In this document: piece after piece, positions 6,600-62,694 of the stretch
Position numbering within the stretch: the first letter of the stretch is position 1
Layout: each line of letters starts with the position of its first letter
NCBI GenBank assembly: GCA_964413425.1
Contig: CAYPST010000003.1
Coordinates: 15,336 to 79,335, forward strand
Length of the DNA: 64,000 nucleotides
Direction of reading: 5' to 3'
From: an uncultured bacterium
Lineage (GTDB): Bacteria > Fidelibacterota > JAANXI01
Made by a program: the position numbers and the translations under genes
Notes under the pieces: model-generated
What the model saw: only the letters and a program-made list of their open reading frames with translations
Databases searched by the model: none
What the model was told of the DNA's origin: nothing

Positions 6600-7580
6600 G
6601 TGGAGTCGGTACGATTGGATACCAGAGTAGATGAACTATCAAACGATGAGGGAAGGATCTTGAACAAGGATTTTCTGGCTATTACGGACTTAACCCGGGA
6701 AGAGATTCTGCAGATTTTCGATATTGCGAAAGTCCTGAAAGAGGAAATAAAACAGGGGGTGACTCATCACCGGCTGTCGGGACAAACGCTGGCAATGATC
6801 TTCGCGAAACCGTCTGCCCGTACCCGGGTCTCATTTGAAACCGGGATGTATCAGCTCGGCGGACATGCTCTCTATCTGTCACCTTCCGACATCGGCATTG
6901 GAGAACGCGAAGCCATCAAGGATGTGGCACAGGTGCTCTCACGGTACAATAACGGAATTATGGCCCGGTTATTCGATCATGCCCACATGGAAGCACTTGC
7001 CAGATATGCTGCTGTTCCGGTCATTAACGGCCTCACCGATTACAACCATCCCTGCCAGGTGATGGCCGATATTTTTACCGTGCTGGAAAGCCGGGGCCAT
7101 TTAAAGGAATTAACAGTGGCATTTGTCGGCGATGGGAACAATGTTGCCAATTCCTGGATCAATCTGGCAGCCCGGCTTCCGATGCACTTCATACTTGCCG
7201 CACCCTCCGGGTATGAACCCGACGAAGCGACAGTGGAAAATGCGCGGAAGGAGGGGCTGAGTACCATCGAAGTAATGCGGAATCCGAAAGAGGCAGTCAC
7301 CAATGCAGACATTATTTATACCGACGTGTGGGCAAGCATGGGCCAGGAATCAGAGAGGGTACAACGCCGGCAGGATTTGCTCCCGTTTCAGGTGAACGGA
7401 AAACTGCTCTCTTTTGCTAAGAAAACCTGCGTTGTAATGCATTGTCTGCCCGCACACCGGGGTGAGGAAATCACCGATGAGGTCATAGACGGTCCGCAAT
7501 CCATTGTGTTCAACCAGGCGGAAAACCGTATGCATATCCAAAAGGCTATTTTAGTCCGACTCATGGAGAAGAAGCACTAG
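6600..7580 (+). CDS. argF: ornithine carbamoyltransferase
   Basis: Carbamoyl-phosphate binding motif SARTR(VSFE) and ornithine-binding motif HCLPAHRGEE. The start is uncertain: GTG at 6600, or TTG at 6660 preceded by GAGGGAAGG. Confidence 0.8.
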   Translation: MESVRLDTRVDELSNDEGRILNKDFLAITDLTREEILQIFDIAKVLKEEIKQGVTHHRLSGQTLAMIFAKPSARTRVSFETGMYQLGGHALYLSPSDIGIGEREAIKDVAQVLSRYNNGIMARLFDHAHMEALARYAAVPVINGLTDYNHPCQVMADIFTVLESRGHLKELTVAFVGDGNNVANSWINLAARLPMHFILAAPSGYEPDEATVENARKEGLSTIEVMRNPKEAVTNADIIYTDVWASMGQESERVQRRQDLLPFQVNGKLLSFAKKTCVVMHCLPAHRGEEITDEVIDGPQSIVFNQAENRMHIQKAILVRLMEKKH

Positions 7581-14565: not shown

Positions 14566-14794
14566 GTTCGAGGGTGGGACGAATCCCATACCCTAAATGA
14601 AACACCGAAACACACTGAAACACACGGATAATGTGAAACTTGACAGGCACCTTTGTCCACTGCCCATCCCGACAAAGTATTCGGGATGACGAAGCGGGGC
14701 AGCCTATTGTCTTTATGCCCATTCAAAAACTTTATGGTTTCCACCTGTTTTTTAAACACTCTCAGAAAATGCAAGCAATGTGAGGAGCAAAATA

Positions 14795-17010: not shown

Positions 17011-17039
17011 ATATCGTATATCGCAAATATACGATAAAT
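17011..17039. promoter_or_regulatory. candidate ArsR operator: 12-5-12 inverted repeat TATATCGTATAT-cgcaa-ATATACGATAaA
   Basis: An imperfect palindrome (23 of 24 positions) lies 26-54 nt upstream of the arsR start codon, inside the divergent arsR / selenoprotein promoter region. ArsR operators are typically 12-2/5-12 dyads overlapping the promoter. Confidence 0.4.
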
Positions 17040-17054
17040 ATTTTAAAATACCGA

Positions 17055-17157
17055 GAGTGTTTAGAAAACAGTAAGTCTCGACACACTGTTGCGCCCGGCA
17101 TCCCTTGTATGTTACCCCACATGATTCTTCGGGGCGAGGCGTTTTCTAAATAGACTC
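17055..17157. mobile_element. MITE-like non-autonomous element, copy 1 (103 bp), family with GAGTGTTTAGAAAAC ... GTTTTCTAAATAGACTC terminal inverted repeats
   Basis: The left end (gagagtgtttagaaaaca) and right end (gggcgaggcgttttctaaatagactca) are nearly identical to the ends of the 236-bp element at 46651-46886. The termini form a roughly 16-nt TIR with one mismatch and one indel. The internal sequence is shorter than in copy 2. No ORF. Confidence 0.55.
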
Positions 17158-17390
17158 ACTACCAGAAATTTCTTGAAGTCATGAATCTTTGCAGACAAGA
17201 CTCCTCAGGGAAACAGGAAAATTCCGGCGGACGTCGTCAGAGCAGAAAAATTTCTCTCCAGTTGAGAAATACTTTCAAGTATGATGGGAATTGTTATATA
17301 TTCAACAACTATCAGAGAAAAATTTGAGTGGGGTAGATTTCTCACTCTGGATACCAGTGTCCAGATATATTTATGGGGAGGAAGTACAGT

Positions 17391-17942
17391 ATGCCGCATA
17401 TTGAAATCAAGAATCCGCTGCCGGGCATTGCCGGACTGCTCCAGGATTTTCCGGAGACCGGTGAACCCATATCTGCATTGACGGAGGTCTTGCTCCGGGG
17501 ACCATCACCGCTGTCTGCCGGGGAGCGCGAATTAATTGCCGCGTATACGTCCTCTAAAAATGATTGCTTTTACTGAACGCAAATCCATGGCGCCATAGCA
17601 GAACACCTGCTGGGCGACAGTTCCGCAGTTGTGGAACAAGTATTAACGGATGTGGACACTGCACAAATTAGTGACAAATTGCGAGCACTTTTACACATTG
17701 CTGCCGGGGTGACCAGGTCGGGTACTGAGGTTTCCGGACAGTTGATCCACCAGGCACGCGAGGCCGGGGCGACGGACCGGGAGATTCACGACACAGTTCT
17801 GGTGGCAGCAGCATTCAATATGTTTAATCGCTATGTTGACGGACTGGGAACGTATGCTCCCACTGATCCGGAAATGTACAAGAAGCGCGGGAAGATCATT
17901 GCGGAGCAGGGATATCTCCGTGGGAAAAATGGTGAATCGTAA
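17391..17942 (+). CDS. AhpD-like / carboxymuconolactone-decarboxylase-family peroxidase-related selenoprotein (in-frame UGA = Sec at 17574-17576)
   Basis: Two ORFs in the same frame (17373-17576 and 17631-17942) are separated only by TGA. Read through, the product is ...ELIAAYTSSKNDCFY-U-TQIHGAIAEHLLGD..., which reproduces the family redox motif E...N.C.YC...H with the resolving Cys replaced by UGA, the signature of the known AhpD-like selenoprotein family. RBS GGGGAGGAAG lies 6 nt before ATG 17391. A 9-bp hairpin starts 13-20 nt after the UGA. Confidence 0.75.
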
Positions 17943-17950
17943 CCAGGAAT

Positions 17951-17983
17951 TTTGAGTCTGTTCAAGAACCACATAGACTCAAA
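17951..17983 (+). terminator. hairpin downstream of the selenoprotein gene (tttgagtct-N15-agactcaaa)
   Basis: A 9-bp perfect stem sits 9 nt after the stop codon. No clear U-tract. The 3' arm resembles the MITE terminus (atagactca). Confidence 0.35.
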
Positions 17984-32136: not shown

Positions 32137-32166
32137 TTGAGCGATTTATTTCCATAAATCGCTCAA
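32137..32166 (+). terminator. strong hairpin (13-bp perfect stem ttgagcgatttat / ataaatcgctcaa, loop ttcc) just after the stop of 31227-32123
   Basis: Perfect inverted repeat 14 nt downstream of the stop. No U-tract follows, so it is either a U-less terminator or a structural repeat. Confidence 0.4.
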
Positions 32167-32237
32167 TCGACAAAGAAAATGTAAGTTTTCACCTCACCCA
32201 TTCGGTGAAAACAAACATTTTCTCAGTCGGGGTTATA

Positions 32238-32283
32238 CCTAAGTACAGCGATACTTCGCTGCACTCGTATCGCTCAACTTAGG
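32238..32283. repeat. imperfect-palindrome repeat element (family B), copy 1: cctaagtacagcgatacttcgctg / cactcgtatcgctcaacttagg
   Basis: The reverse complement is identical over both 22-nt arms to 46532-46599, where a 22-nt insert separates the arms. The arms are imperfect inverted repeats of each other (REP-like). Confidence 0.55.
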
Positions 32284-32534: not shown

Positions 32535-32692
32535 GAGTCTATTTAAGAAAACGCTTCGCCCCGAAGGGATGCCTTCGGCAAAGAGGTCCCGTGACAACGG
32601 GACAAAGAAACTAGAACATATCCCTTGCCAAACCCTCGCAATACATGTTGAAGATGTGTTCTCTATAGAATAAAAATATATGGCTATTCAGC
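32535..32692. mobile_element. MITE-like element, copy 3 (reverse orientation, one end degenerate)
   Basis: gagtctatttaagaaaacgcttcgccccgaagggatgccttcggcaaagaggtcccgtgacaacgggacaaag... matches the reverse complement of 46886 back to about 46700, with point differences and without copy 2's internal duplication. The far TIR (ttctaaacactc) is not recognisable. Confidence 0.45.
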
Positions 32693-33389
32693 TTACTCAG
32701 TATTTGTGGAGATCAAGAGTTCCTGGAGACGCTCTGACCGAATGACCCCCTCTGGCTCCCCCTTAGTAAGGGGGAGAACGAGGAAAATGGGGTCAGGCCC
32801 GAAGGGCCCCCTATGGGGCAGCATTGAGGTAGGTGTTCATCTCCTGAGCCAAGTTAATAGTCATATTCATTAAAACTGAATTATCGAGGTAAATAACAGG
32901 AGTAAGTCATAATAGAACTAGTAGTTAGATTAATTAAAAAGGATTCTCTTAAGATAACTTCAGTACAGGATCGAGAAACTCCCGGGGAGTGTTCCTATGA
33001 AGCGTTAAGGAGTGAGTCTAGCCAGAGTGCTCAGCAGGCCGGATGTATCCACAAAGCCCTGATGCGCTGATTTTGGCCCCCAGGGGCTAGATATTTCTAG
33101 CAATGAGTCCCTCTCCCCCCTTCCGCGCCGGAGGAGCAGTACTGAGTTAAGCTGATAGTAAAATATGCATAATTAATATGATTAATCAGGAAAAAACATT
33201 GCTTTCATTAACAAACTACGTTATACTTATAGCAACATATGTATTTGACATCGCTTAGAACCTGACCCATAGATAAGAACTGTTTACTTTTGTTGTTCAT
33301 GTCGGTTTACTTTAAGCTTGGTTAGCAGAGGATAGGAAGCAGTATTTTGAGGCACTGTAATAAGGGGTTAAGAGAAAAGATATGGCGAT

Positions 33390-33425
33390 GCACACGTTTG
33401 CGAATACGTTTTCGCAAACGTGTGC
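33390..33425. promoter_or_regulatory. 36-bp near-perfect palindrome GCACACGTTTGCGAATAC|GTTTTCGCAAACGTGTGC (candidate operator or stable hairpin)
   Basis: 35 of 36 positions are self-complementary. It lies about 170 nt upstream of the TonB-dependent receptor start at 33598. Confidence 0.45.
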
Positions 33426-33597
33426 AAATGGCATCATCGTTAATATAATTTGTTTAAGGAATCGCAGATCGTTTCTGGGCAAGGCAGCATAATTAAAAGG
33501 CGTTTCGAAGGCTCTTCACTAGGTGGCTGATATGTCTGAATTTTTATTAAAGAATTGAATCACCATTAATATAATATAAACAGAAAGGAGAATTACC

Positions 33598-46531: not shown

Positions 46532-46599
46532 CCTAAGTTGAGCGATACGAGTGCCCCACTGGGGTCCCTCTGGGACAGCGAAGTATCGCTGTACTTAGG
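46532..46599. repeat. imperfect-palindrome repeat element (family B), copy 2 (inverted relative to copy 1, with 22-nt internal insertion)
   Basis: cctaagttgagcgatacgagtg-[ccccactggggtccctctggga]-cagcgaagtatcgctgtacttagg. The arms are identical to the reverse complement of 32238-32283. Confidence 0.55.
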
Positions 46600-46650
46600 G
46601 AAATTTGGGATTCATATTCTGCAGAAATGATAATAATTTAGCATTCATGA

Positions 46651-46886
46651 GAGTGTTTAGAAAACATGGTTCTGATGCAAGTTGGTGAACTTGGCTTCTG
46701 TTTAGTATGGAGAGAAGATATAAGCACAATGTATTACGCTATTTGGACGGATATATTCTATATTTTCTTTGTCCCAGAGGGATCTCTTCGAGGCGTTCTT
46801 TGCGGCCTCTGCGAACTTTGTCCCGTCCTGACGGGATCTCTTTGCCGAAGGCATCCCTTCGGGCGAGGCGTTTTCTAAATAGACTC
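46651..46886. mobile_element. MITE-like element, copy 2 (236 bp, most complete), TIR GAGTGTTTAGAAAAC / GTTTTCTAAATAGACTC
   Basis: Both termini are shared with copy 1 (17055-17157). There is an internal tandem duplication of a roughly 45-nt module (ctttgtccc...gggatctct..cgaggcgttctttg). It contains the hairpins cccgtc-ct-gacggg and ccgaagg-catc-ccttcgg. Possible ATTCAT flanking duplication. No ORF. Confidence 0.55.
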
Positions 46887-46915
46887 ATTCATAATTCATC
46901 CGGAAGGGATCTGCT

Positions 46916-62252: not shown

Positions 62253-62694
62253 TTTTTTTGCGGAGGATTGATTCACTCAGCAGTGTTTCGTTTATTTACA
62301 GTCTGATGCTGTTGCGCTATAACCGCTGGGATTTCTCCCAAGGTTCGATTTCGTGATGCACGCAGAATCCTGTGCACTACTCGAGGACAGAAACCCTGCT
62401 ACTCTGTCTGCTGAGGTCCGGCTCCCGTATCCACTCTCCCCCATGTCATCCCGAATCCCTGTTCTTCAGGGGTGAGGGATCTCTGTCGGTGATAGGAAGG
62501 AACGGTTCCCCGACTCCCAGGGGAGATGCAATGACGGTTCACGTCATTCCCTGTTCTGGCGTTCTTTGTCCCGTCGTCACGGCATCTCTTCGAGGTAAAT
62601 CTGTGGCTTTTATCCTCGTCTCAAAGAATCATCTTGCATTCGTACATATAAGGAAATACATTCTAAGTACATTCGAAAGAACATCGAAATTATA

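Follow-up and report, generated by a model that had tools for sequence, protein, structure and literature searches.

MITE-like repeats with inverted termini in intergenic DNA of an uncultured FCB-group bacterium

The window analysed here, a stretch of 64,000 nucleotides, carries a family of short repeats that probably represents a non-autonomous DNA transposon bounded by terminal inverted repeats (TIRs), that is, a bacterial MITE. Two complete copies, one one-ended copy and two relics lie in the 64-kb window, and three more complete copies are found in a sister species, bringing the documented total to five complete copies, one one-ended copy and several relics. The complete copies measure 105-238 nt, below the size limit of ~500 bp for MITEs, and contain no gene-like ORF. 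The case is made of the repeats, their TIRs, duplications in the flanks, the scatter of the copies over non-orthologous sites in the two species and a solo terminus specific to one lineage; what we infer is mobilisation in trans, the identity of the transposase behind it and any effect on gene regulation. All seven sites are intergenic and adjoin unrelated genes (arsR, GH29, a TonB-dependent receptor, a thrA-like gene, a member of the isopropylmalate/isocitrate dehydrogenase family and a radical SAM gene), with inconsistent element orientation and distance relative to these genes and no orientation rule. The family is previously undescribed, but as a MITE it is conventional; literature searches with the terminal sequences and with MITE plus Marinimicrobia (one full-text query) found no paper.

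Copies, relics and termini in two species

The termini of copies 1 and 2 (Table 1) are GAGAGTGTTTAGAAAAC at the left and GTTTTCTAAATAGACTC at the right, which are complementary at 14 of 17 positions; an inverted-repeat search of the two copies delimits TIRs of 17-19 nt with 82-84% complementarity. A preliminary description of this DNA had proposed a repeat family with inverted termini, and both ends are indeed present in copies 1 and 2, whereas copy 3 has the right terminus only. The TIR begins 2 nt earlier than had been placed there, which gives the boundaries in Table 1. At up to three mismatches, the right-end 17-mer and its near-complement match the window five times against 0.09 expected, and the matches in copies 1 and 2 fall exactly at the ends. 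A search with nhmmer, using a model built from six copies, finds no additional copy in the window.

Table 1. Copies, flanking repeats and relics of the family in the window
Feature	Position	Strand	Remarks
Copy 1 left flank repeat, AATACC	17047-17052	.	5/6 match to ACTACC
Copy 1, complete, 105 nt	17053-17157	+	TIRs 17053-17069 and 17141-17157; nhmmer E 1e-17
Copy 1 right flank repeat, ACTACC	17158-17163	.	
Copy 2 left target-site duplication, ATTCAT	46643-46648	.	
Copy 2, longest complete element, 238 nt	46649-46886	+	TIRs 46649-46665 and 46870-46886; nhmmer E 4e-53
Copy 2 right target-site duplication, ATTCAT	46887-46892	.	6/6 match
Copy 3, one-ended	32535-~32700	-	Right terminus plus two hairpin modules
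Solo left terminus of a decayed copy, GAGAGTGTTTAaAAAACAG	14745-14763	-	18/19, 1 mismatch
Isolated hairpin-module fragment, 39 nt, TTCTTTG-TCCCGTCGTCACGGCA-TCTCTT	62552-62590	+	34/39 identical to copy 3

The interior of copy 2 consists of a conserved block, TTACGCTATTTGGA, followed by an array of TCTTTG-flanked GC hairpins (TCCC-AGA-GGGA, TCCCGT-CCTG-ACGGGA and CCGAAGG-CATC-CCTTCGG), which Tandem Repeats Finder does not call as an array. The landmarks common to all complete copies are block TTACRCTATTTGGA, an ATATTTTCTTTG junction and then a variable number of TCTTTG-spaced GC hairpins, ~0-4 per copy, whose sequences differ between the two species. The core CTATTTRGA of block TTACRCTATTTGGA repeats the core of the terminus. 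At the right end, every copy has a small hairpin and then GCGTTTTCT. Two hairpin modules had been described as common to the three window copies. Copies 2 and 3 do share both, in 48 nt that are 92% identical, whereas the diverged interior of copy 1 has neither intact and retains the 3' half of one.

Copy 3 ends in a right terminus, GTTTTCTTAAATAGACTC, that carries a 1-nt insertion. It is ~92% identical to copy 2 over 32535-32608, its similarity then fades toward ~32700, where the left end has degenerated or been truncated: the nhmmer alignment is limited to model positions 53-194, and neither a recognisable left TIR nor a clear flank repeat is present. The earlier reading that the elements encode no protein is borne out, as no ORF of at least 35 aa resembling a gene occurs in or around copy 3, and the 1.5-kb non-coding island in which it lies is free of any decayed transposase ORF. 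The two relics are also in spacers. The solo terminus sits between the aldose-epimerase and Gfo-Idh-MocA genes, ~15 nt upstream of the RBS region of the next gene, and the hairpin-module fragment lies upstream of the gene for a DeoR regulator. A further terminus, "atagactca" (ATAGACTCA, 17975-17983), had been described as related to the family; it lies in the hairpin after the CMD-family gene. This 9-mer is expected ~0.5 times in 128 kb of two-strand sequence; the match is at chance level and therefore no evidence of relatedness.

The host can be placed by its genes. The window encodes KpsF, LptB, RpoN, HslVU and OTCase, followed by a large fucose-utilisation locus. The closest named homologues of its RpoN come from 'Candidatus Marinimicrobia bacterium' (81-84% amino-acid identity), with KSB1 and Calditrichaeota next at ~52-55%, and a relative has T9SS proteins with Por_Secre_tail domains; together these point to an uncultured FCB-group bacterium. 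The sister species is represented by the MAG SMAG_U9204 (GCA_035267465.1), whose RpoN is 96% identical and whose orthologous coding DNA is ~83% identical over 5.4 kb.

Copies outside the window were sought by exact-match scans of genome, metagenome and viral contig collections with the right terminus; the genome collection covers the sister species and not the window's own genome. In the genome contigs, the scan finds two real copies in SMAG_U9204 and one chance match in coding DNA (L001). The metagenome contigs return both SMAG_U9204 copies again, from the metagenome that yielded this MAG, together with a third copy, L005, and a 20-mer match beside a LapD-like gene (L008) that is due to chance. 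The viral contigs have no match to the right terminus, and a left-terminus match in a giant-virus MAG (L015) is again a chance match.

All three sister-species copies (L002, L003 and L005) are complete, with lengths of 168-179 nt and both termini. The left terminus, which was absent from the search key, is matched at 19 of 19 positions in L003 and L005 and at 15 of 19 in L002; window copy 1 agrees with the L003/L005 form at 18 of 19. The termini are identical or nearly identical to those of the window copies and the interiors ~70% identical. Over the whole element, identity between the genomes is 67-80%, and ~70-74% for the longest window copy. Within a genome it is higher, with 90% between L003 and L005 (both 168 nt and gap-free) and 81% between window copies 2 and 3, against ~70% across genomes. 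The flanks of the sister copies have no match in the window, and the sites are non-orthologous; the neighbours are a thrA-like aspartokinase/homoserine dehydrogenase gene, an isopropylmalate/isocitrate dehydrogenase family gene and a radical SAM gene, in varying orientation. The sequence is thus not unique to the loci first described, since three more complete copies occupy unrelated intergenic sites in the sister species.

The family seems confined to a narrow lineage, that of an uncultured FCB-group bacterium for which the closest named relatives carry the label 'Candidatus Marinimicrobia'. The nhmmer profile detects no copy in ~76 kb from four more distant relatives, and copy 2 has no match among 72,556 plasmids (BLASTN in blastn mode, distant setting). 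Exact-protein look-ups with the GH29 and RpoN proteins of the window likewise return no match. Directly to the left of the full copy in L002, an inverted, TIR-less array of CGCAAAG-type modules (L002 ~700-770, equivalent to L006 ~7225-7295) is probably the relic of another insertion, making a nested or adjacent pair.

In both genomes the TIRs lie exactly at the ends of the complete copies. Complementarity of 14/17 is found in four of the five (window copies 1 and 2, L003 and L005); the left end of L002 is diverged and less complementary, and the inverted-repeat search reports none for this copy. Apart from the diverged left end of L002, the mismatches occupy the same positions, 4, 5 and 7, in the complete copies of both genomes. 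The three non-complementary positions comprise two mismatches and one G-T, which are conserved and not compensated, and the changes in the left terminus of L002 have no compensating changes at its right end. The shared mismatch positions point to a constraint on sequence rather than on pairing.

Flanking repeats and insertion

Direct repeats flank four of the five complete copies; they span 6 bp at three of these sites and 9 bp at the fourth. The pairs are ATTCAT/ATTCAT for copy 2, where the repeat is present on both sides as had been noted, AATACC/ACTACC for copy 1, AATTGT/AATCGT for L002 and ATTAATTTT/ATTAATTTT for L003 (9 bp). One 6-bp pair and the 9-bp pair are perfect, and the other two 6-bp pairs match at 5 of 6 positions. 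The repeats directly abut the GAGAG...GACTC ends. Random site pairs from the same sequences reach the criterion 0.9% of the time; the flank repeats, in four of five copies, are therefore far beyond chance. The fifth complete copy, L005, has no flank repeat. This and the non-uniform lengths of the repeats (6, 6, 6 and 9 bp) count against the MITE reading. The exact boundary can be drawn in two ways that differ by one base: the elements could equally have TG...CA ends with a 4-bp (7-bp) duplication, in an IS3/IS481-like manner, or GAG...CTC ends with a 6-bp duplication.

The solo terminus offers a comparison between lineages. Its spacer measures 214 nt in the window. Two relatives lack the terminus, and their spacers are shorter, with 78 nt in L012 (the sister species) and 132 nt in L017 (more distantly related). 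These spacers, 136 and 82 nt shorter than that of the window, are too diverged to define the exact empty site; the enlarged window spacer fits a lineage-specific insertion. Searches for an exact empty site to pair with an intact copy gave none, which also counts against the MITE reading. For copy 2, the empty-site search went through the neighbouring LacI, whose best non-self homologue is only 66% identical, and no close orthologue of the LacI-GH29 locus is present in the databases; the only match of an exact-protein look-up with LacI is a Logan contig of 1.6 kb, which stops short of the element. For copy 1, approached from the aldose epimerase, the sister contig L012 stops inside a methyltransferase gene, before arsR is reached.

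Flank repeats at four of five copies and a lineage-specific solo terminus fit transposition. Furthermore, the MITE interpretation of the preliminary description is supported by the ends, which align in all complete copies, and by the frequency of the flank repeats relative to background. As for the mechanism, the ~17-19-nt termini, and possibly also the internal, subterminal copy of the CTATTTRGA core, would serve as binding sites for a transposase whose gene lies elsewhere in the genome. The element would then be excised or copied and inserted by staggered cleavage into AT-rich intergenic DNA, where a short target duplication, mostly of 6 bp and once of 9 bp, would arise as the staggered cut is repaired. 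Subsequent decay would account for copy 1, as a variant with an internal deletion, for the one-ended copy 3, for the solo terminus at 14.7 kb and for the module fragment at 62.6 kb.

Origin of the elements

Could the copies be small structured RNA genes or portable cis-regulatory cassettes, kept for an RNA function, with the inverted ends forming a closing stem? This seems unlikely. Copy 2 does fold better than shuffled sequences on both strands (z -3.2 and -2.7) with its termini paired, an excess that any TIR element would show. GC hairpins recur with different sequences across copies, and the hairpin and GCGTTTTCT that precede every right end coincide in copy 1 with a weak terminator-like prediction (17127-17139). 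In addition, the GH29 start codon (46916) is 29 nt downstream of the right end of copy 2, so the transcript or promoter of this gene must involve the element. However, the TIR mismatches are conserved and uncompensated, including the one-sided changes of L002, and orientation and distance to the genes are inconsistent, next to neighbours that are functionally unrelated. Flanking direct repeats are unexpected for RNA genes. Rfam has no match at the gathering threshold across the window and no relevant match in two spacers even at E <=1, where only hairpin-like miRNA noise appears. Sigma-70 promoter scans predict none inside the element, and Bacteroidetes-type -33/-7 motifs (TTTG and TAnnTTTG) can be fitted loosely by eye, on which basis no promoter is claimed. 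A role as a CsrA sponge, through GGA in the hairpins, was considered and not retained. An RNA function competes with transposition only if mobility is denied, since a MITE could have a regulatory side-effect without contradicting the main reading.

Alternatively, each short element might be the remnant of a full-length IS that suffered its deletion in situ, the short forms themselves never having transposed. The TIRs and target duplications could then be inherited from the parental IS insertions, and decayed one-ended copies and solo termini do exist. Nevertheless, L003 and L005 lie at unrelated loci and are both 168 nt long, collinear, gap-free and 90% identical, and copy 2 shares with them the internal landmarks TTACRCTATTTGGA and GCGTTCTTTGCGGCCTYYGCGA. 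Independent deletions would not yield the same junctions, and none of the interior segments resembles coding sequence, which makes this origin improbable.

The small number of documented copies and the outcome of the transposase search count against the MITE interpretation. Some 30 ORFs of the window are all metabolic or regulatory and include no transposase. The parent was sought by exact-match scans keyed on the right terminus only in the genome and metagenome collections and on both ends in the viral collection; these return only short elements or chance matches, and no longer element with these termini. Neither an autonomous element nor a transposase with these TIRs is found in the window, the 19 fetched loci or the scans. 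The only IS seen in a relative is an IS3-family element (L019 16640-17420+; HTH_Tnp_1 OrfA, then OrfB). This relative has 83% RpoN identity, and the IS lies downstream of its OTCase gene, at a position that is IS-free in the window. The element was checked as a parent because the MITE can be read as TG...CA-ended, and its ends are unrelated to the MITE termini.

In this respect the family differs from MITEs with known parents. A parent IS with matching TIRs is known for RUP of Streptococcus pneumoniae (IS630-Spn1) and for Nezha of cyanobacteria (ISNpu3-like). The window family resembles these in its conserved termini, variable interior, lack of an ORF and presumed mobilisation in trans by a genomic transposase, whereas for the window family the scans, the window and the fetched loci yield no parent IS. 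A likeness to the Correia elements (NEMIS) of Neisseria may also be drawn. These are MITEs of ~100-160 bp with 26-nt TIRs and a TA duplication, present in hundreds of copies in a proteobacterial host. Both are non-coding intergenic repeats with TIRs, a target duplication, length variants that arise by internal deletion and insertion close to genes. In contrast to Correia elements, with which there is no sequence similarity, the family described here has 17-19-nt TIRs, a duplication of 6 bp (9 bp once), a handful of documented copies and an FCB-group host.

REP and REPIN sequences are imperfect palindromes of 20-40 nt, often in inverted pairs, which depend on RAYT and have neither a TIR-bounded body nor a target duplication. 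The present family shares with REP/BIME/REPIN sequences short extragenic repeats that form hairpins, including isolated hairpin modules, but its units are 105-238 nt long, with TIRs and flank repeats, and fall outside the definition of REP. That the copies are REP/REPIN-like or recombination-generated palindromes, spread not by a DDE transposase but through gene conversion or an enzyme of the RAYT type (IS200/IS605-like), is very improbable: the copies are intergenic and hairpin-rich, one hairpin module stands alone at 62552-62590 and a second, unrelated palindromic mini-repeat occupies the same spacers, yet the bodies of 168-238 nt have defined 17-nt TIRs and flank repeats, and no Y1 transposase or RAYT gene is seen in the window.

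Neighbouring genes and other repeats

The gene contexts given in the preliminary description stand: copy 1 lies between the ArsR gene and a CMD/AhpD-like ORF with an in-frame TGA, copy 2 between LacI and GH29 genes and copy 3 between a TIM-barrel gene and that of a TonB-dependent receptor. Correia elements frequently sit a short way upstream of a gene and can there contribute promoters, terminators or RNA-processing hairpins. For the MITE described here, the GC hairpins and the right-end hairpin with GCGTTTTCT mean that an insertion could affect transcription or mRNA stability of a neighbour, and a regulatory side-effect of this kind is plausible. The sites at which it could be felt are the GH29 operon downstream of copy 2 and the divergent arsR/selenoprotein region. 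A more far-reaching proposal is that the element is more than a passive MITE. The hairpin array of its interior would be expandable, and the module, which is found alone at 62552-62590, might be a second-order mobile or duplicating unit. Alternatively, the whole element might be a portable cassette with terminator, insulator or RNA-stability function, recruited in this lineage to control polysaccharide-utilisation and stress operons; in the GH29-FucU-FucI operon, for example, it might form the promoter or 5' leader. We consider this unlikely.

The family opens no new mechanistic question. With it, recent activity of a DNA transposon is documented for an uncultured lineage of the FCB group, from which no described MITEs were found. 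Annotation of the element explains odd non-coding "islands", and the repeats may break metagenome assemblies. Furthermore, two insertions are flagged as possibly altering regulation, the one 29 nt upstream of the fucosidase operon and the one between arsR, with its probable operator, and the candidate selenoprotein gene.

The operator in question is a perfect 10-bp inverted repeat, TATCGTATAT-N5-ATATACGATA (17012-17036), between the arsR start codon and copy 1 and 16 nt from the left end of the latter; it is probably the ArsR operator. On the other side of copy 1, the in-frame TGA of the CMD/AhpD-like ORF (17391-17942) occupies 17574-17576. Its surroundings read C-F-Y-U-T-Q-I-H, the CxxCxxxH motif of the family with the second Cys replaced, and the part downstream of the TGA matches Pfam CMD. 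The ORF is a candidate AhpD-like selenoprotein gene.

A second mini-repeat, unrelated to the MITE, is found in the window. It is a 46-nt palindrome, CCTAAGT...ACTTAGG, at 32238-32283 and 46532-46599, with arms 100% identical between the two sites and in opposite orientation; the 46532-46599 copy contains a 21-22-nt GC hairpin in its loop. The palindromes share their spacers with MITE copies 3 and 2, respectively, give DNA folds with z -5.6 and -4.3 and occur in none of the 19 fetched loci. A perfect 14-bp hairpin, TTGAGCGATTTAT-N4-ATAAATCGCTCAA (32137-32167), lies 14 nt after the stop codon of the TIM-barrel gene and has the TTGAGCGAT arm in common with this mini-repeat; it could be a terminator or else belong to the palindromic family as its third member. 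In the same region, ~170 nt upstream of the gene for the 1014-aa TonB-dependent receptor, lies a perfect 16-bp inverted repeat, GCACACGTTTGCGAA...TTCGCAAACGTGTGC (33389-33427), for which Rfam gives only a spurious miRNA match and which is possibly an operator or an RNA hairpin.

The fucose-utilisation locus around copy 2 (40136-62252) contains about nine GH29 alpha-L-fucosidase paralogues, with 60-83% nucleotide identity in conserved blocks, together with GH95, FucU, FucI, an FGGY kinase, an MFS transporter and LacI and DeoR regulators. Four or five Gfo/Idh/MocA paralogues stand in tandem upstream of it (23.7-31.1 kb).
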